Source: Candidatus Iainarchaeum sp. (GTDB lineage: Archaea > Iainarchaeota > Iainarchaeia > Iainarchaeales > CSSED10-239). Taken from it: a DNA stretch of 5,785 nt. The DNA lies in assembly GCA_937968065.1 (NCBI GenBank), contig CALBUD010000063.1:1-5785 (forward strand), given 5' to 3'. Every line of letters starts with the position of its first letter. Within the stretch, counting starts at the first letter, position 1. Under the pieces are notes generated by a model, which was not told where the DNA came from, ran no database searches, and saw only the letters and a program-made list of their open reading frames with translations. Of this stretch, positions 2 through 5,785 are shown one piece after another. A program made the position numbers and the translations under genes.

Positions 2-877
2 AAAAAAAAAGAGTCTGCAAAAAAATATTGGAAAGCTGTTTGTGAAAATAATCTTTTAGGAACATCTATAACTGAATACAATAATTTAAATCCTTATAAA
101 GCATATTTAGAATTATTAAAACATAAACCTAAAGATAAAGTATTAATTCCAGGTATAAAAGTTATAACCGATTCAGGAGAAGTTTTAATTTATTCAAATA
201 CTCCTGAGATTTATAATTATTCTATACTTTATGAAAATAAAGTTTCTTTAAAAAGAATAATTGATTTTTGTAATAAAAAAAATTATTTAATATCAATTGC
301 ACATCCTTTTGGTCTTATTTCAAATTCAGCAACATATATTCTTGGACTTGATAAATTAGAAAAATTAGTTAAAGAAAAAAAAATAGGAGTGGAAGCATAT
401 ACTGGAATTATTGGTTATTTAACTTATTATTTATATGATTCTTTTTTTTTAAGAAAAACAAGACATCTTTTAGATTATCTTGAACTTCATAGGTTATTTA
501 AAACTATTGGATTTTCAAGACTTAGTGAGTCTTTAACAAATAAACTTGATCAAAAATGTTATGATGTTGTATATAGATTTGAAGCTGCGATAAAATTAGG
601 TAAATCTGCAAAATATGTAACTGCAGGTTCTGGTGGATATAATGTTGATGATATTGGAAGTGGAATTTTAACTTTAGATCTTCCAAAATCTTTTTTTGAG
701 ATTAAAGATGATTTTTCAAAAAATAAATTTTTGTTAAATAAAATTAAATCTAAAAAAATAAAAGCAGTTGGACCTCCTGGAAAATATACTGACAATCTTT
801 TTGAAAGATCAACTGCAAGAAAAACTAAAAGAAAAGCATACAATGATTTAATGTATCTTACAAAGAGATCTATTTAA
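2..877 (+). CDS. PHP (polymerase/histidinol phosphatase)-fold domain protein, 5'-partial (runs off the left window edge), with partly degenerate metal-ligand motifs
   Basis: Frame 2 is open from position 2 to TAA at 875-877, so the listed GTG start at 389 is probably internal. The translation has PHP-like blocks in canonical order: VLIPGIKVITDSGEVLIY (140-193, cf. 'v.GiEi....GH.l'), ISIAHPFG (293-313, cf. 'AHP'), IGVEAYTG (383-406, cf. 'iEv.N') and VTAGSGGYNVDDIGSG (617-664, cf. 'GSDAH....iG'). The C-terminal tail is basic. The family call is by eye only. Confidence 0.55.
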   Translation, partial: KKKESAKKYWKAVCENNLLGTSITEYNNLNPYKAYLELLKHKPKDKVLIPGIKVITDSGEVLIYSNTPEIYNYSILYENKVSLKRIIDFCNKKNYLISIAHPFGLISNSATYILGLDKLEKLVKEKKIGVEAYTGIIGYLTYYLYDSFFLRKTRHLLDYLELHRLFKTIGFSRLSESLTNKLDQKCYDVVYRFEAAIKLGKSAKYVTAGSGGYNVDDIGSGILTLDLPKSFFEIKDDFSKNKFLLNKIKSKKIKAVGPPGKYTDNLFERSTARKTKRKAYNDLMYLTKRSI

Positions 878-889
878 TGTGAATAAATT

Positions 890-1621
890 ATGGATATTTT
901 ATATGTGCCTTTAATTGTTTTTACTTTAATTATTTTATTATATGTAACTTATCAAGATATAAAATATAGAGAGATAAATGTTATCTCTTTGTTAATTTTA
1001 GCGGTTGTAAGTGTTGTTTATCTTGGAATTTTTATTTTTAAAAATAATTCTTTTTTATGGTATAATTATGTTTTACAATTAATTATAACTTTTTTGTTTT
1101 TATTTATATTTTATCTTTTAGGAAAATTAAGTAATCTTACATATATTGGAGAAGGAGATTTATATATAATTCTAGGAATCTCTTTTACCAATATTTTTGA
1201 TATTTATTTTTCTATGTTTATTTTTATTTCTGCTTTGTTTTTAAATTTGTTAATACCAATAGGTATCTTTTTATTTAATCTTTTATCTAAAAATTATCCA
1301 AAACATTCTTTTTTAAAATCGATTTATTTGATGTTTTTAGGATATCCTCTAAAGTTAAATAAGATAACTAACTTTTATACTCCTTTAGAGAAATATGTTT
1401 TAGAAGAAGGTATTTTAAAATATAAAACAACTATTAAACCAAATATTGAACCTGAAAAAGAATTAAAATTACTTAAATCTTTTGCAAAAAAAAATAACAT
1501 CTCCCAAATTTGGGTTTCTCCTTTAGTTCCTTTTGCAATACTTATCTTTTTAGGTTATGTTCTGGTTATTTCTCTTTATCTTTTAGATATTATTAATTAT
1601 TTGTTAAGTTTCTTCATATAA
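890..1621 (+). CDS. Archaeal-type A24 family aspartic peptidase (prepilin/preflagellin peptidase, FlaK/PibD/EppA-like)
   Basis: 243-aa polytopic membrane protein. The first catalytic Asp sits right after TM1 in YQDIKYREI (D23, codon 956-958; cf. 'D.K.R.IP'). The second Asp sits in a GxGD motif, IGEGDLY (D90, codon 1157-1159). There is no N-terminal methyltransferase or Cys-rich domain as in bacterial PilD. A soluble insert followed by IWVSPLVPF resembles the archaeal A24 C-terminal domain. It lies directly upstream of FlaI-like and FlaJ-like genes. Confidence 0.85.
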   Translation: MDILYVPLIVFTLIILLYVTYQDIKYREINVISLLILAVVSVVYLGIFIFKNNSFLWYNYVLQLIITFLFLFIFYLLGKLSNLTYIGEGDLYIILGISFTNIFDIYFSMFIFISALFLNLLIPIGIFLFNLLSKNYPKHSFLKSIYLMFLGYPLKLNKITNFYTPLEKYVLEEGILKYKTTIKPNIEPEKELKLLKSFAKKNNISQIWVSPLVPFAILIFLGYVLVISLYLLDIINYLLSFFI

Positions 1622-1651
1622 ATCTTGTTTGTATATATATAAAGATTTATA
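1617..1651. repeat. 10-bp perfect inverted repeat (TATAAATCTT / AAGATTTATA) with a 15-nt (TA)-rich loop, overlapping the peptidase stop codon
   Basis: Read directly: 1617-1626 tataaatctt and 1642-1651 aagatttata are reverse complements. The loop at 1627-1641 is gtttgtatatatata. It could be a weak all-AT-but-one stem terminator or a protein-binding site. Function is unknown. Confidence 0.4.
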
Positions 1652-1706
1652 AATATAATGAACTATATCTATATAGATTAAAATATATTTTACAAATAAG
1701 ATATTT
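1652..1706 (+). promoter_or_regulatory. Putative archaeal promoter region for the 977-aa gene (TATA-like elements, 12-bp palindrome, no Shine-Dalgarno)
   Basis: This lies in the only sizeable intergenic gap (85 nt). It holds a perfect palindrome ATCTATATAGAT at 1667-1678. A TATA-like TTAAAATA at 1678-1685 is centred ~26 nt upstream of the ATG at 1707, the spacing expected for a leaderless archaeal mRNA. No GGAGG-like motif precedes the ATG. TATA-like strings are common by chance in sequence this AT-rich. Confidence 0.3.
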
Positions 1707-4640
1707 ATGGGTAATAAAGAAGATTCTTTAGAATTTAAAGTAATTAAAAGAATTCCTTTATCTACAGGTGTATCTTCTAAAACAACTTCTAAAAATATTG
1801 ATTCTCTTAATATTAAAAGATTAGATTCTATAGATATTAAAGAAACTAATATTAAAGAAACTAATCTTAAAAAAACAACTCCAGATTTTAAACAAAATTT
1901 AAAAGACATAAGAGATATTACTTTTAAAAAAGTTTCAAAATTAGATGATGTTGAAAATAATTTAAAAGAAGAAGTTCCATTTAAAATAAAAAAAGGTTCT
2001 TTAGAATTAAATAATTTTAAAAAAGAACCAAATGTTTTGAAAAATAAATCTTTAGAAGAAAATAAATCTTTAGAAAAAGTATCTTCTTTTACTCTTGATG
2101 ATATCAAACAAAATAAAATTAAACCTAAAGAAAAAAAAAAAACTATAAAAAAAATTGAAGTTATTGATAATTTAATAAGTCACGATGCTTCTTTAAAAAA
2201 CCAAGAAACTTCATATCCTTTACATTTTAGTAATGAAATTTATAAGGAAGGACGTATAATTAATTCTTTAGAAAATATTTTAAAAAATATTGATAATCCT
2301 TTTACTATAAAAGAACTTTCAAAAAAAGAAGAATTTATAGATCAATTTAATCAAGAACAAAATAATGTAGATACTCTTTTATTAGAATTAAATAAAAAAA
2401 CAAATAAACTAGATGAAGATGTTTTTTTAGAATCTTTTTCTTTTCTTGATAATAAACCAAAAATTGAAAAAATAAAATACCCTTCATATAATGTAAAACA
2501 TCTTTATTCAAAGATAGATAGCTTAAATAAAGAAATAATTTCTGAAAATAAAGAAAAAATAAATGAAAAAGAAAAGCAAGTTTTTAAAAAAGATGATTTT
2601 AATAATTCTTTAATTGAAGAAATTGAAATTCCTGATGTTTATCCTCTTGAAGATAATGTTGAAGATGTTAATCATATTATTGAAAATAGATATGTAAAAG
2701 ATTCTTTAGAGGATTTAGAAGATACTAAGATATTAAATCAAGATTTGAACGAAATTCCAAAAATAAAAACTAATGAAAGTTCTTCAAAAATACCTAATTT
2801 TGTTTTAGAAAATAAAAAAATTAAATTAAATAAAGATATTGAAGAAAATATTAATAGAACACAAAAACCATTAAATAAAAATAATAACCCTTCAGAAAAA
2901 TTTAATATTAATAAATTTTCTGATAAAATAAAAGAAGATGATGACCATACAAAAGATATTTATTCTAAAATAAATGTAAATAAAGAAGATGATCAAAAAA
3001 TAGAAACTAAGTATAAAGAATTAAAAGATCCTTTAAATATTAGAAAACAAAAGAAAATAAAAAAAGAATATATTGTTATTAAAGAAAAACCAAAAGTTAA
3101 AAAAGATTTAATTTCTGAAAAATATTCTGATTTTAAAGAAAAAGGAATTGATTATATTCTTCCAAGAGATGTTGGTAAAGAAAAAATAAAAAAACAACAA
3201 ATATATATAGAATCAAAACCTGAAAAAGACTCTAATTTTTCTTCACTTGTATATACTGATCCACTCTATGTTTCAAATAAAGAAGTTTCTCAAATTTTTG
3301 AAAAATATTCAATTGATGAATTTACATATGTTACTATTTATTATGATTCTGAAAAAGGTTTGTTATATAACTTAGTTCAACCAGAAATTCCTTTAGATGA
3401 AGAAAAAGAATATTCTCAAATTAAAAAAATATTTTTTAATACTATAGATCAAAACTATTATTCTTTTAATGGAGATAAAAAAAGTCTTGAAAAATATATT
3501 GAAAAAATATATGATATTTCTCTAAATAAATTATCTTATTCTTTAAATAATCTTCAAAAAAAACTTTATTTTAAATTTATTCAAAGAGATTTTTTTGGAC
3601 TTGGAATTTTAACTAATCTTTTGCAAGATAAAAAAATATTAGAAATAACTTGTTCTGGAGAAAAATCAAGTATTTTAGTAAACCACATAGAATATGGAAA
3701 TTTAAAAACAAACATTAGTTTTTCAAGTATTAGAGAACTAAATAATTTTGTAGAAATATTAACTAAAAATATGGGCCTTTTTATAACTGAATCTCACCCT
3801 GTAATAGATGGTTATCTTCCAAATGGATATAAAGTTGAAGGACTTTATTCTTCAGGAGATACCAGTAGTAAAGGATCCTCATTTGTTATTAAAAAATATT
3901 TAGATGAACCTCAATCTCCAGTATCTTTAATTAAAACAAGTATTGGTTCTATTGATTTATTTACATATATATGGTCTGCAATTTCAGAAGACTATAAAGT
4001 AATTATTGTTGGTCTTGATGACTCTTTTACAATATTTAATTCTATTTTATTATTTTATCCAAATAAAAAAATAATAACTGTTCAATCATATGATCGTTTA
4101 AAACTTCCACAACAAGAGTGGATTAATAGAGTTTTTACGAATAATCCAGATATTGATAAAAAGTTAATAATAAATCAAACAATTTCACAAAAACCAGATT
4201 ATTTTATAGTTGATCAATTTCAAGAAGATATTTTTGATGTTTCTTGGCATAATATAAATATGTTTTCAATATCTCCAATAGTCTATAATGAAGTTTTAGA
4301 AAAATTAAAACAAATAAATCAAAAAACTATTGTTATAGAGTTAAGAAATATAAAACAAGAAATTAAAGAAAATATTCAAATAATATCAATTAAAGAAATT
4401 ATTTCAAATCACGAAATTTTAATTTCAGAAATTGATATTAATAAGAAAGTTTATTCAATTAATCTTTTATCTTCAAACATAAACATTGTTGATTTCTTAA
4501 AACGAAAAAAATTATTAAGATGGATGTTTGATTCTAAGATATATAATTATATAGATTTTAATAATATTGTTTCTGAGTTTTATTTTCAAAAAGACAATAT
4601 TTTTAAAAGATTAAACATTGATATAGATGAGGATAAATAA
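1707..4640 (+). CDS. FlaI/ArlI-PilB-like (GspE/VirB11 superfamily, T2SSE) secretion NTPase homolog with degenerate nucleotide-binding motifs and a ~500-aa low-complexity N-terminal extension
   Basis: 977-aa ORF. From ~aa 520 it is colinear with archaeal FlaI-type ATPases: FTYVTIYYDSEKGLLYNLVQPEI (cf. 'v.I..d.....Y.v.EP.l'), QRDFFGLGILTNLLQDKKILEITCSG (cf. 'rd.vGyG.i..lm.D..iEDIsc.G'), VNHIEYGNLKTNISF, PVIDGYLPNGYKVEG...KGSSFVIKKY (cf. 'PivDa.LpdGsRi......GssFtIRKF') and a C-terminal LKRKKLLRWM block. The Walker A, Asp-box, Walker B and His-box positions are substituted (see findings). Confidence 0.85.
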   Translation: MGNKEDSLEFKVIKRIPLSTGVSSKTTSKNIDSLNIKRLDSIDIKETNIKETNLKKTTPDFKQNLKDIRDITFKKVSKLDDVENNLKEEVPFKIKKGSLELNNFKKEPNVLKNKSLEENKSLEKVSSFTLDDIKQNKIKPKEKKKTIKKIEVIDNLISHDASLKNQETSYPLHFSNEIYKEGRIINSLENILKNIDNPFTIKELSKKEEFIDQFNQEQNNVDTLLLELNKKTNKLDEDVFLESFSFLDNKPKIEKIKYPSYNVKHLYSKIDSLNKEIISENKEKINEKEKQVFKKDDFNNSLIEEIEIPDVYPLEDNVEDVNHIIENRYVKDSLEDLEDTKILNQDLNEIPKIKTNESSSKIPNFVLENKKIKLNKDIEENINRTQKPLNKNNNPSEKFNINKFSDKIKEDDDHTKDIYSKINVNKEDDQKIETKYKELKDPLNIRKQKKIKKEYIVIKEKPKVKKDLISEKYSDFKEKGIDYILPRDVGKEKIKKQQIYIESKPEKDSNFSSLVYTDPLYVSNKEVSQIFEKYSIDEFTYVTIYYDSEKGLLYNLVQPEIPLDEEKEYSQIKKIFFNTIDQNYYSFNGDKKSLEKYIEKIYDISLNKLSYSLNNLQKKLYFKFIQRDFFGLGILTNLLQDKKILEITCSGEKSSILVNHIEYGNLKTNISFSSIRELNNFVEILTKNMGLFITESHPVIDGYLPNGYKVEGLYSSGDTSSKGSSFVIKKYLDEPQSPVSLIKTSIGSIDLFTYIWSAISEDYKVIIVGLDDSFTIFNSILLFYPNKKIITVQSYDRLKLPQQEWINRVFTNNPDIDKKLIINQTISQKPDYFIVDQFQEDIFDVSWHNINMFSISPIVYNEVLEKLKQINQKTIVIELRNIKQEIKENIQIISIKEIISNHEILISEIDINKKVYSINLLSSNINIVDFLKRKKLLRWMFDSKIYNYIDFNNIVSEFYFQKDNIFKRLNIDIDEDK
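1836..1865 (+). repeat. Perfect 15-bp tandem duplication (attaaagaaactaat x2), in frame, encoding IKETN-IKETN
   Basis: Read directly: 1836-1850 and 1851-1865 are identical. It lies inside the low-complexity N-terminal extension. Confidence 0.9.
2043..2078 (+). repeat. 18-bp-period tandem repeat (aataaatctttagaa + 3 nt, x2), in frame, encoding NKSLEE-NKSLEK
   Basis: Read directly: 2043-2057 equals 2061-2075. The trailing triplets differ (gaa vs aaa). Confidence 0.9.
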
Positions 4641-4678: not shown

Positions 4679-5521
4679 ATGTTTAGTAAATTTTTAACAA
4701 AAATATCTAGTTATTTTTTTAAAGATCTAATCATAAAATTAAAACCAAATTTAACTGGTTTTGAAAAAGTGTTAAGTTATACAGAAATAAATGAAGATAC
4801 AGTTACATATCTTTCAAACATATTATTTTTATCTTTATTTTCTTTAATCATCATAGAATTTGGTCTAATCTTTTTAATGATAAGATTAAATATCTTATTT
4901 AATCTTTTAAGTTTTTTTATAACTATTGTTATTTCTTTTACATTTTCTTTTATGATTTTCTTGCTATTATATAAATATCCTTATTATCTACTAGATATAA
5001 AAAAGAAAAAGATAGATGAGGAATTTACAAGAAACATAAGACATCTATCTGTTTTAAAAGATGAAAACTTAAGTATACAGGATGTTTTAAACATTTTTAA
5101 AAACTTAGAAAATAATGATCTTTTAAGTAAAGAAGCAAGAAAAATAATCTCTTTAACAAAACAAAACCATAACTTAAGAGATACTTTTAAAGCAATTATT
5201 TCAGAAACTTACTCGGAAGTTGAAAAAAACTTTTTTAGAAAGTTGATAAGTGTTATTGATAAAAAAGAAGATTTAAACCAAGTTGTTTCAGATTTTCTAA
5301 ATTCTTTAGAACAATCAAGAAAAGAGATTAGTGAACAGAAAAAAAGTAGAGTTAACCTTTTATTCTTAATTTCTATATTTTTATTTTTCTTTTTTATAAT
5401 TATTTTAATATTAATTTTTATGACGGTTACAAATTTATCTTTATTAAAAGAAATGTTAATGATTTTTGCAATAGTTTTTTCAATTGTTGAGTTTATATTA
5501 GTATTAATATTATTTAAATGA
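4679..5521 (+). CDS. Single-repeat type II secretion system F-like (FlaJ/TadC/PilC family) polytopic membrane platform protein
   Basis: 280 aa. Predicted topology is two N-proximal TM helices (about LSNILFLSLFSLIIIEFGLIFLMI and LLSFFITIVISFTFSFMIFLLLY), then a ~115-aa charged helical cytoplasmic domain, then two C-terminal TM helices. The helical domain contains LSKEARKII...NLRDTFKAI...YSEVEKNFFRKLISVIDKKEDL, resembling the T2SSF pattern 'l..e...i......l..al.....ps..l..f...l....G.dl'. It sits immediately downstream of the FlaI-like gene, the canonical FlaI-FlaJ order. The call rests on topology plus synteny. Confidence 0.6.
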   Translation: MFSKFLTKISSYFFKDLIIKLKPNLTGFEKVLSYTEINEDTVTYLSNILFLSLFSLIIIEFGLIFLMIRLNILFNLLSFFITIVISFTFSFMIFLLLYKYPYYLLDIKKKKIDEEFTRNIRHLSVLKDENLSIQDVLNIFKNLENNDLLSKEARKIISLTKQNHNLRDTFKAIISETYSEVEKNFFRKLISVIDKKEDLNQVVSDFLNSLEQSRKEISEQKKSRVNLLFLISIFLFFFFIIILILIFMTVTNLSLLKEMLMIFAIVFSIVEFILVLILFK

Positions 5522-5785
5522 GTGTAGAGTATATGAATTTTAAAGATAAAAACGGAACAATTGCTTATTTTGATAAGATAAATGGTGATAGTTTTATTGA
5601 ATTTATTAAAGAAAGGCTTTTATTTTTAAAGGAAATTTTAACTGATGATGGAAGTTTATTTATTCATTTAGATTATAGAATGTCACATTATATAAAAATT
5701 GCTTTAGATGATCTGTTTGGGTTTTCATCATTTAGAAATGAAATAATTTGGAAATATAATTGGGCTAGTACAGTCAAAAAATATT
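5518..5785 (+). CDS. N6/N4 DNA methyltransferase (beta-class, PF01555-like), 3'-partial; apparently lacks the N-terminal (D/S)PP(Y/F) motif
   Basis: The frame is open from ATG 5518 (or ATG 5533) to the window end. An in-frame TAA at 5515-5517 sits just upstream. Translation: MSVEYMNFKDKNGTIAYFDKINGDSFIEFIKERLLFLKEILTDDGSLFIHLDYRMSHYIKIALDDLFGFSSFRNEIIWKY. This matches the MTase block 'y..fm..Rl.e..RvLk.dGsl.iH.D....hy.k..lD.iFG..nF.NEIiW.Y'. ATG 5518 overlaps the upstream TGA (5519-5521) as ATGA. Confidence 0.7.
   Translation, partial: MSVEYMNFKDKNGTIAYFDKINGDSFIEFIKERLLFLKEILTDDGSLFIHLDYRMSHYIKIALDDLFGFSSFRNEIIWKYNWASTVKKY

Follow-up and report, generated by a model that had tools for sequence, protein, structure and literature searches.

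The 5,785-bp DNA stretch of Candidatus Iainarchaeum sp. examined here (contig CALBUD010000063.1; hereafter the window) has a G+C content of ~20% and carries five genes on the + strand, one of which encodes a 977-amino-acid (aa) protein comprising a long N-terminal extension and a degenerate core of the FlaI/GspE type (Table 1). This protein represents a real and conserved family, the members of which belong to the secretion ATPase superfamily by evolutionary origin but fail on every catalytic motif. With moderate confidence, we infer that it is a pseudo-ATPase scaffold in a pilus operon of Iainarchaeota, in which a disordered N-terminal arm would work as a tether with docking motifs. L numbers (e.g., L001, L002, and L012) denote the loci of relatives and P numbers denote proteins, P0001 being the window protein.

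The core was assigned to the FlaI/GspE2 fold by both sequence and structure. Among the PDB sequences, it matched 2oap with an E-value of 9e-36 and 4ii7 with an E-value of 7e-28. The homology to FlaI/GspE begins at aa 523–528, and the boundary between extension and core proposed at nt 3264 in the initial annotation was correct within ~10 nt. The NCBIfam model for FlaI (NF058587) was hit with an E-value of 2e-38 but with 132 bits against a cut-off of 550, and Pfam T2SSE (PF00437) was not reported for the core at E ≤ 1. The Foldseek search with the AlphaFold2 (AF2) model retrieved 2oap (E = 3e-32) and 4ihq (E = 4e-30) over ~500 aligned columns with template modeling scores (target) of 0.57–0.72, and 4II7 was likewise among the matches to the AF2 core. 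The predicted local distance difference test (pLDDT) values of the core were mostly 80–95, with a few blocks at 63–80, and the two-domain fold, an N-terminal domain (NTD) plus a RecA-like C-terminal domain (CTD), is present.

We aligned the core with A. fulgidus GspE2, S. acidocaldarius FlaI, and the active archaeal relatives P0011, P0020, and P0021. The loss of motifs and the lengths of core and extension were checked in 26 members of the family, while the conservation per block was computed over 28 non-redundant members. The same deletion of 2–3 residues in Walker A was found in 26 of the 26 members, whereas the active relatives retain GATASGKT. The Asp box is replaced, and a five-residue deletion takes out the His box (TGHxxxxTxHA) in all members. 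The catalytic position of Walker B (the Glu of hhhhGE; E336 in S. acidocaldarius FlaI) is occupied by Q, E, N, D, H, Y, T, or V across the family and thus not conserved. The active relatives in the same alignment keep every nucleotide motif. The core is nevertheless under constraint, as its block conservation is 0.6–0.9. The partner domain of the extension had been regarded as a FlaI/PilB-type ATPase, an assignment that fails on all four nucleotide motifs across the family; therefore, the ideas on the motor function of FlaI do not transfer directly. Judging from the motif loss, the protein most likely cannot hydrolyze ATP. We thus regard the core, with the same moderate confidence as the reading of which it is a part, as a catalytically dead, lineage-specific paralogue in the FlaI/GspE2 secretion ATPase family.

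An active motor of the FlaI/PilB type, the N-terminal arm of which recruits partners or the membrane, would suit the homology and fold described above, the peptidase and platform genes in the same operon, and the label “type II/IV secretion system ATPase” that relatives bear in public records, where others are entered as “hypothetical.” Nevertheless, the deletion of the Gly-Lys of Walker A, the replaced Asp box, the unconserved Glu of Walker B, and the deleted His box are seen in every member, Pfam T2SSE is absent, the NCBIfam score stays far below its cut-off, and the motifs are intact in the active relatives of the very same alignment. We regard an active motor as very improbable. The most conserved stretch of the family (0.87–0.90) is the NTD–CTD junction (GYLPNGYKVEGLYSxGDxSSKGSSFxIKKY; 3810–3900, aa ~701–730), in which the Arg of the active relatives is mostly Lys. 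In active relatives, this junction helps bind ATP, and it is thus conserved here even though the ATP site to which it would contribute has been lost. A degenerate in-frame tandem repeat (period 27 + 9 nt; IKQEIKENIQIISIKEII) lies at 4352–4418, within the C-terminal domain of the core and in a region that is occupied by additional segments in canonical ATPases.

The extension and the core constitute a single polypeptide started at ATG 1707. This ATG is the first start codon after the in-frame stop codon, and the conserved residues FKVIKRIPLS right after it support 1707 as the start. The only in-frame Met codons of the 977-aa open reading frame (ORF) are codons 1, 689, 852, and 940, in agreement with the initial annotation, which noted no in-frame ATG from codon 1 to about codon 690. 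In-frame GTG is absent, and the only in-frame TTG codons are 111, 347, 552, and 639, so that the stretch from codon 347 to codon 552 holds no further start. None of the four TTG codons is preceded by a Shine-Dalgarno-like motif at a useful spacing, unlike the downstream T2SSF gene, which carries GAGG at −5. No internal TTG or GTG start is therefore credible after this check of the Shine-Dalgarno context, and the proposal that the core can be made only as a fusion with the extension was borne out. The extension frame contains no stop codon, whereas 57 were expected on average from 2,000 shuffles (minimum 33) and 12–103 occur in the other five frames across the extension; therefore, the frame is held by selection.

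We also considered whether the extension could belong to a gene of its own or be an artefact of annotation or assembly. In these cases, translation would start at an internal non-ATG codon near nt 3200, or two genes would have been joined by a frameshift. The split or short database entries P0017, P0029, P0035, and P0010 + P0012 point in this direction. Nevertheless, P0017 (523 aa), P0029 (151 aa), and P0035 (241 aa) were rejected as extension-less or stand-alone forms because they turned out to be assembly defects at the DNA level: L016 contains one frameshift, L019 contains two, and L020 is interrupted by a run of N. These defects lie inside the gene at the same syntenic position, none of them at the boundary between extension and core. 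P0010 and P0012 are on one shared 4671-bp contig and the break is ~50 aa into the core. In addition, the frame runs uninterrupted from the extension into the core in more than 25 independent assemblies, and there is the gap in start codons between codons 347 and 552. Altogether, the separate-gene explanation has largely been refuted already and is, of all the alternatives, the one to which we give the least credence: the extension is not a product of frameshift or assembly error, and the three short copies inspected at the DNA level are the defective ones.

The protein search retrieved full-length relatives of 940–1101 aa with 46–55% identity, the nearest one being ~55% identical, and the core-only query added relatives of 757–791 aa; the family members diverge to about 40% identity. 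When ortholog lengths were compared, as the initial annotation had suggested, every intact relative showed the same fusion architecture with a long extension, and no member without the extension was found. The extension is 308–679 aa long in the 28 non-redundant relatives and 315–686 aa long in the 26 members checked for motif loss, while the core is constant at 442–448 aa. According to the genome records, the hosts are Candidatus Iainarchaeum, “ainarchaeum” sp., Candidatus Forterrea multitransposorum, and unclassified archaeal metagenome-assembled genomes, i.e., the Iainarchaeota/Diapherotrites of DPANN. The extension-only profile searched exhaustively by HMMER against 1.84 billion representative proteins yielded 18 clusters, all of the same architecture or fragments, and none outside this family. 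Thus, the extension is the hallmark of a lineage-restricted family, present in every intact relative and nowhere else. No description of the family was found in the literature searched on inactivated ATPases of archaeal type IV pili, pili of Forterrea and Iainarchaeota, pilus pseudo-ATPases, and degenerate Walker A motifs in DPANN, nor by a term search within Makarova et al. (2016; PMC4858521).

The extension is highly charged, and the ~520 K/E/N/D/I-rich residues reported in frame with the core were confirmed by both the composition and the open frame. The composition of aa 1–520 is 18.7% K, 10.8% E, 10.8% I, 10.4% N, and 8.5% D, with 3.8% of scattered Pro and neither Cys nor Trp. The fraction of charged residues (FCR) is 0.39 and the net charge per residue (NCPR) is 0.01 in the window protein; the family ranges are 0.27–0.45 for FCR and within ±0.06 for NCPR. 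Compared with other ORFs from these genomes, the extension has more K, E, N, and D, less G, A, F, and Y, and no excess of Ile. AT bias alone would not give this composition, as Phe and Tyr, the codons of which are AT-rich, are scarce and Ile stays at the background level. The extension was described as methionine-free, which is true of the window protein but not special: the codon-position composition of the extension (A1 0.46 × T2 0.28 × G3 0.02) leads to an expectation of only ~1.3 ATG in 521 codons, so that the lack of Met is a compositional accident, and the extensions of relatives contain 0–9 internal Met.

We judged disorder from the charge-hydropathy relation and AF2 pLDDT. The hydropathy of the extension (0.385) is lower than the Uversky boundary (0.417), while the core is above the boundary. 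The pLDDT was <50 over most of the extension and very low throughout aa 1–220, with aa 1–150 at 25–45 and no secondary structure. Thus, the extension is predicted to be largely disordered, one of the two states (disordered or coiled-coil) proposed at the outset. Neither a transmembrane segment nor a signal peptide was found in the extension, consistent with the earlier claim; the highest mean of the Kyte-Doolittle scale over 19 residues was 0.14. No relative of any part of the extension was detected in Pfam, NCBIfam, or PDB: the Pfam search with nine extensions gave only sub-threshold noise, and the best E-value in the PDB profile search was 0.32. The matches to KaiA_N (E = 0.01–0.03), PACSIN F-BAR, and Lpp (E > 0.3) were dismissed as noise rather than homology.

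The extension had been described as low-complexity sequence, but it is not uniformly so, as it holds a module of fixed spacing and conserved motifs. The conserved elements keep a fixed order, namely FKVIKRIPLS, the ~55-aa module (island A), EEIEIPD, PNFV..KLN, DYILPxD, and LVY. In island A, the spacing between anchors is constant (22–25 + 21 aa in 28 sequences), and the central segment reads ESFSFLDDKPK in the 28-member conservation profile. AF2 folded this module into a helix, a beta-hairpin, and a helix, with pLDDT of 54–70 for the first helix and the hairpin and <50 for the last helix. In island D, Y483, P486, and D488 are invariant in alignment A1. Outside the islands, the block conservation drops to 0.10–0.33 except for aa 11–20 (0.54). 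The segment ahead of island A varies from 104 to 369 aa, and the linker between islands C and D from 33 to 169 aa, among 28 sequences. Tandem Repeats Finder (TRF) confirmed the short in-frame tandem repeats that had been noticed in the extension; their periods of 15, 18, 21, and 24 nt are all multiples of 3. The variable parts of the extensions in relatives hold lineage-specific tandem repeats in the same region, and the Forterrea proteins, at least 90% identical to one another, possess 2, 3, 4, and 5 copies of a 15-aa unit and are 1071, 1086, 1101, and 1116 aa long, respectively. Thus, the distal 100–370 residues and the linker between islands C and D evolve in length through the gain and loss of in-frame repeats. 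The 15-aa repeat, KKEVPLDKVDNSNIS, lies at aa ~115–190 of P0160, P0164, P0005, and P0162 (the Forterrea cluster), and its differences in copy number are either real variation at the strain level or the collapse of repeats in assembly.

Low-complexity inserts occur in other AT-rich genomes, and the extension could be neutral low-complexity filler generated by slippage and AT bias in a genome of ~20% GC, only the core being of importance. The extreme variation in length of the extension, the lineage-specific repeats with copy numbers changing at the strain level, the very low pLDDT at aa 1–220, and the poor conservation beyond the islands are all in line with this explanation. On the other hand, the same ordered islands with fixed internal spacing were found in 28 of the 28 members down to ~40% identity, no member lacks the extension, and the neighboring proteins in the same genomes are of ordinary size. 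The composition is not simply driven by AT content (F/Y/G/A depleted and K/E/D/N enriched against the local background), and the charge balance is kept across the family. We regard neutral filler as unlikely for the extension as a whole; it probably describes the distal spacer segments but neither the whole region nor the islands. Altogether, the charge and hydropathy, the pLDDT, the length change, and the islands are those of an intrinsically disordered region with short linear motifs, as which the extension is predicted to behave.

Another explanation is that the extension forms a structured, elongated element, such as a coiled coil or a helical stalk, which holds the core at a distance from the membrane or forms a cage in the cytoplasm. 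The K/E-rich sequence and the AF2 helices at aa 221–236, 267–287, and 401–450 (the last with pLDDT of 65–86) are suggestive of such an element. Nevertheless, AF2 predicts no secondary structure for the greater part of the extension, where pLDDT is 25–45, Pro is scattered along it, and the linkers bearing the helices vary greatly in length and are often missing in relatives (occupancy 0.2–0.7). We therefore consider a stalk improbable, though less so for aa 401–450.

The gene order in relatives is a gene for a 303-aa protein followed by those for the A24 peptidase, the pseudo-ATPase protein, a T2SSF protein of 280 aa, another T2SSF protein of ~380 aa, and DUF192, and then for 174-aa proteins (one or two) that are hydrophobic at the N-terminus and, last, for a PKD protein. 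The operon is thus of the type IV pilus kind, with the peptidase and T2SSF genes in the window and the second T2SSF, DUF192, and PKD genes in relatives. The 174-aa proteins are weakly supported as pilins by a match to UpsA (E = 0.05) and the N-terminal hydrophobic segment, and they belong to no Pfam family. In L001 (15759–16283) and L002 (15505–16707), the proteins of 173–175 aa start with K(K)SISAIISVVLLILVT, resembling the archaeal class III (pilin) signal, and are followed by the large PKD-domain protein. None of the archaellum genes ArlB/F/G/H/X or C/D/E was seen within ±10 kb of L001 and L002. With no arl/fla operon around these loci and the cut-off of the NCBIfam equivalog missed, the protein was not identified as the archaellum motor ArlI/FlaI.

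No active ATPase is encoded within the pseudo-ATPase operon of relatives. An ATPase of the TadA/CpaF type with intact Walker motifs, fused to a 4Fe-4S ferredoxin, is encoded 2.5–12 kb away in related genomes, and its gene is followed by those of its own small platform proteins. It is found 2.5 kb downstream in L012 (10080–11870), and P0055 is encoded 12 kb downstream of P0003 on NPID01000316.1. Such active ATPases are also present on the Forterrea chromosome (P0169), on the contig carrying P0004 (P0173), and likewise on the contig carrying L014. In L012 (10080–13475) and L017 (6001–9231), a second pilus-type module near the pseudo-ATPase operon comprises the TadA/CpaF-like ATPase with the Fer4 domain, two small membrane proteins (one with a weak match to T2SSF), and a DedA/VTT protein.

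In the scaffold reading that we favor, the pseudo-ATPase protein would sit on the cytoplasmic side of its cognate platform and have a structural or regulatory role there. Its disordered arm would serve as a long and flexible tether with conserved motifs that may dock partners. The obvious candidate partner would be the TadA-like active ATPase with the ferredoxin domain encoded 2.5–12 kb away; the peptidase, the pilins, and the loops of the platform could be alternative partners. Four points weigh against this reading. First, the core may possess a non-canonical nucleotide site; the junction that helps bind ATP in active relatives is the most conserved part of the protein. Second, the putative docking by motifs was deduced solely from the pattern of conservation. 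Third, the poorly conserved helices at aa 401–450 receive the pLDDT of 65–86 given above, and a part of the “linker” may be structured. Fourth, a methylase gene follows the first platform gene in the window and the contig ends there; therefore, the full operon context is visible only in relatives. In related genomes, the second T2SSF gene (~380 aa) holds the position of this methylase gene (5518–5785), and either the operon was rearranged in the window organism or the short contig is chimeric.

The usual description of a type IV filament machine consists of a motor ATPase and a platform. As a more speculative and, in our judgment, unlikely extension of the scaffold reading, the FlaI/GspE2-type motor of the main pilus operon may have been turned by Iainarchaeota into a dedicated pseudo-enzyme scaffold. 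Islands A–E of its arm would then capture the separately encoded TadA-like ATPase with Fer4 (possibly redox-sensing) and link it in trans with the platform. If true, this would be a two-protein design of adaptor and engine that is undescribed for these machines, possibly tied to host attachment in archaea with small genomes. More generally, the only copy of the motor retained in a conserved DPANN pilus operon is a dead one, which bears a disordered arm of 300–700 residues found nowhere else. If the scaffold reading is true, the protein would provide a naturally occurring case of pilus assembly with a pseudo-ATPase, specific motifs would become testable for partner binding, and the annotations “type II/IV secretion system ATPase” and “FlaI” would mislead metabolic and lifestyle inference in DPANN genomes. 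We rate the impact as moderate, as the hosts are uncultured and no long-standing question is opened by the finding itself.

Comparison with known systems places the family apart from each of them. The core is homologous to FlaI/ArlI (4IHQ and 4II7) and A. fulgidus GspE2 (2OAP), sharing the NTD, the RecA-like CTD, and the C-terminal helical domain, and the window protein is likewise encoded beside a prepilin peptidase and a T2SSF platform protein. In contrast to these canonical proteins of ~510 aa, which have no long N-terminal extension, the window family has lost all four nucleotide/catalytic motifs. N-terminal additions are known for secretion ATPases, such as MshEN in PilB/MshE, the three GSPII domains of Thermus PilF, and N1E of GspE. 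The window protein resembles these and the Cys-rich ATPases below in having a partner-binding or regulatory module N-terminal to the NTD–CTD core, but theirs are folded domains on active motors, whereas the window protein combines a mostly disordered extension with an inactive core. A Cys-rich domain at the N-terminus is carried by the archaeal secretion ATPases of subclade 4F, according to Makarova et al. (2016; PMC4858521). The same principle of addition is seen in the neighboring active ATPase of these genomes with its 4Fe-4S ferredoxin domain. No domain homology to MshEN/GSPII, N1E, the Cys-rich domain, or Fer4 was detected in aa 1–522. Among the archaeal secretion ATPases with intact motifs, P0011 (1049 aa) and P0118/P0132 (1040 aa) bear N-terminal regions of ~550 aa. 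The K/E-rich N-terminal extension of P0011 was rejected as a homolog of the window extension with an hhalign probability of 0.2%; therefore, the similar-looking acidic motifs in alignment A3 are coincidental.

ArlH/FlaH is a KaiC-like, ATP-binding regulator of ArlI, and the proteins of the GspL/PilM type are cytoplasmic adaptors. By analogy, these may be similar to the window protein in the proposed role of a non-hydrolyzing cytoplasmic organizer or regulator of an active motor, but they differ in fold and origin, as the window protein was derived from a motor by inactivation. Bacterial Tad/Flp systems comprise TadA/CpaF, TadB, and TadC, each platform protein having one T2SSF domain. Similarly, the platform in relatives is split into two single-domain T2SSF genes (280 and ~380 aa) and the active ATPase of these genomes is TadA/CpaF-like, but the context of peptidase and pilin is archaeal and the ATPase-like gene of the operon encodes a dead protein of the FlaI/GspE2 type.

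Table 1. Features of the window and of the 977-aa protein (nt positions in the window; aa positions in the protein)
Feature	Position (nt)	Strand	Position (aa)	Evidence or remarks
303-aa gene, conserved, 3' part	2–877	+		Runs off window start
A24 prepilin peptidase, archaeal (FlaK/PibD type)	890–1621	+		Pfam Arc_PepC_II E 5e-12, Peptidase_A24 E 1e-5; syntenic in all loci
Cis element with two AT palindromes	1640–1692	+		53 nt, 15–67 nt upstream of ATG 1707
Box 1, TTTATAAATATAATG	1646–1660	+		AT palindrome of upstream element
Box 2, AAAATATATTTT	about 1676–1687	+		AT palindrome of upstream element
Whole gene: N-terminal extension and degenerate FlaI/GspE-like core	1707–4640	+	1–977	Full-length homologs 46–55% identity
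N-terminal extension	1707–3272	+	1–522	Balanced polyampholyte, hydropathy under Uversky boundary
N-terminal motif FKVIKRIPLST	1734–1766	+	10–20	Alignments, block conservation 0.54
In-frame tandem repeats, period 24 + 15 nt, IKETN x3; hypervariable distal spacer	1792–1876	+		TRF
Further in-frame tandem repeats	2041–2075, 2525–2570, 2807–2850	+		TRF
Island A, ~55-aa module, NVDxLLxxLNKKTxKL..FLESFSFLDDKPK..Y.VKNLYSKID	2364–2531	+	220–275	Conservation 0.47–0.72, full occupancy
Island B, acidic motif LxEEIEIPDIxxIEDD	2607–2681	+	301–325	Conservation 0.55–0.64
Island C, KIPNFVxxNxKxKLNxxIExNI	2787–2861	+	361–385	Conservation; AF2 hairpin and helix, pLDDT 70–74
Island D, DYILPxD	3147–3176	+	481–490	Conservation 0.64
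Island E, SSLVYxDP	3237–3266	+	511–520	Conservation profile; leads into core
FlaI/GspE2-fold core: NTD, CTD, C-terminal helical domain	3273–4637	+	523–977	PDB, NCBIfam, Foldseek, AF2
Walker A remnant GLDDSFT	4011–4031	+	769–775	Gly-Lys of GxxxxGK[ST] deleted (GLDDS--FT)
Asp-box remnant VQSYDR	4080–4097	+	792–797	Replaces IEDTxE; family [IV]Q[SA][YF][DE]x
Walker B remnant DYFIVDQ	4197–4217	+	831–837	Catalytic Glu of “VGE” is Gln
His-box deletion site WHNINM	4245–4262	+	847–852	5-residue deletion
T2SSF platform protein, single-domain (TadB/TadC/FlaJ-like), 280 aa	4679–5521	+		Pfam T2SSF E 4e-11; syntenic
N6/N4 DNA methylase, gene start	5518–5785	+		Pfam PF01555 E 3e-7; overlaps T2SSF gene stop

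The block upstream of ATG 1707 is conserved as well, which lends further support to this start codon. Its identity to the corresponding spacers of L001 and L002 is 94–98%, against 76–80% for the flanking, most conserved coding DNA, and it was alignable in 16 loci. Each of 12 loci holds a single exact copy of the 15-mer TTTATAAATNTAATG, in every case before the pseudo-ATPase gene. Both palindromes resemble archaeal TATA boxes, and the second one is centered ~26 nt before the ATG in the window, a distance compatible with a leaderless or short-leader mRNA. The block is probably a promoter or a site for a regulator that is specific to this gene; as far as can be judged from the DNA sequence, a promoter with TATA and B recognition elements giving rise to such an mRNA is probable.

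The searches for tRNA genes and Rfam elements found no tRNA and no credible Rfam element in the window. The ORF called at 389–877 with a GTG start is in fact the 3' portion of the gene for the conserved 303-aa protein. In relatives, this protein starts with MLYNIDMHTHL, shows a weak match to CehA/McbA metallohydrolases (E = 0.001), and is always encoded upstream of the peptidase.

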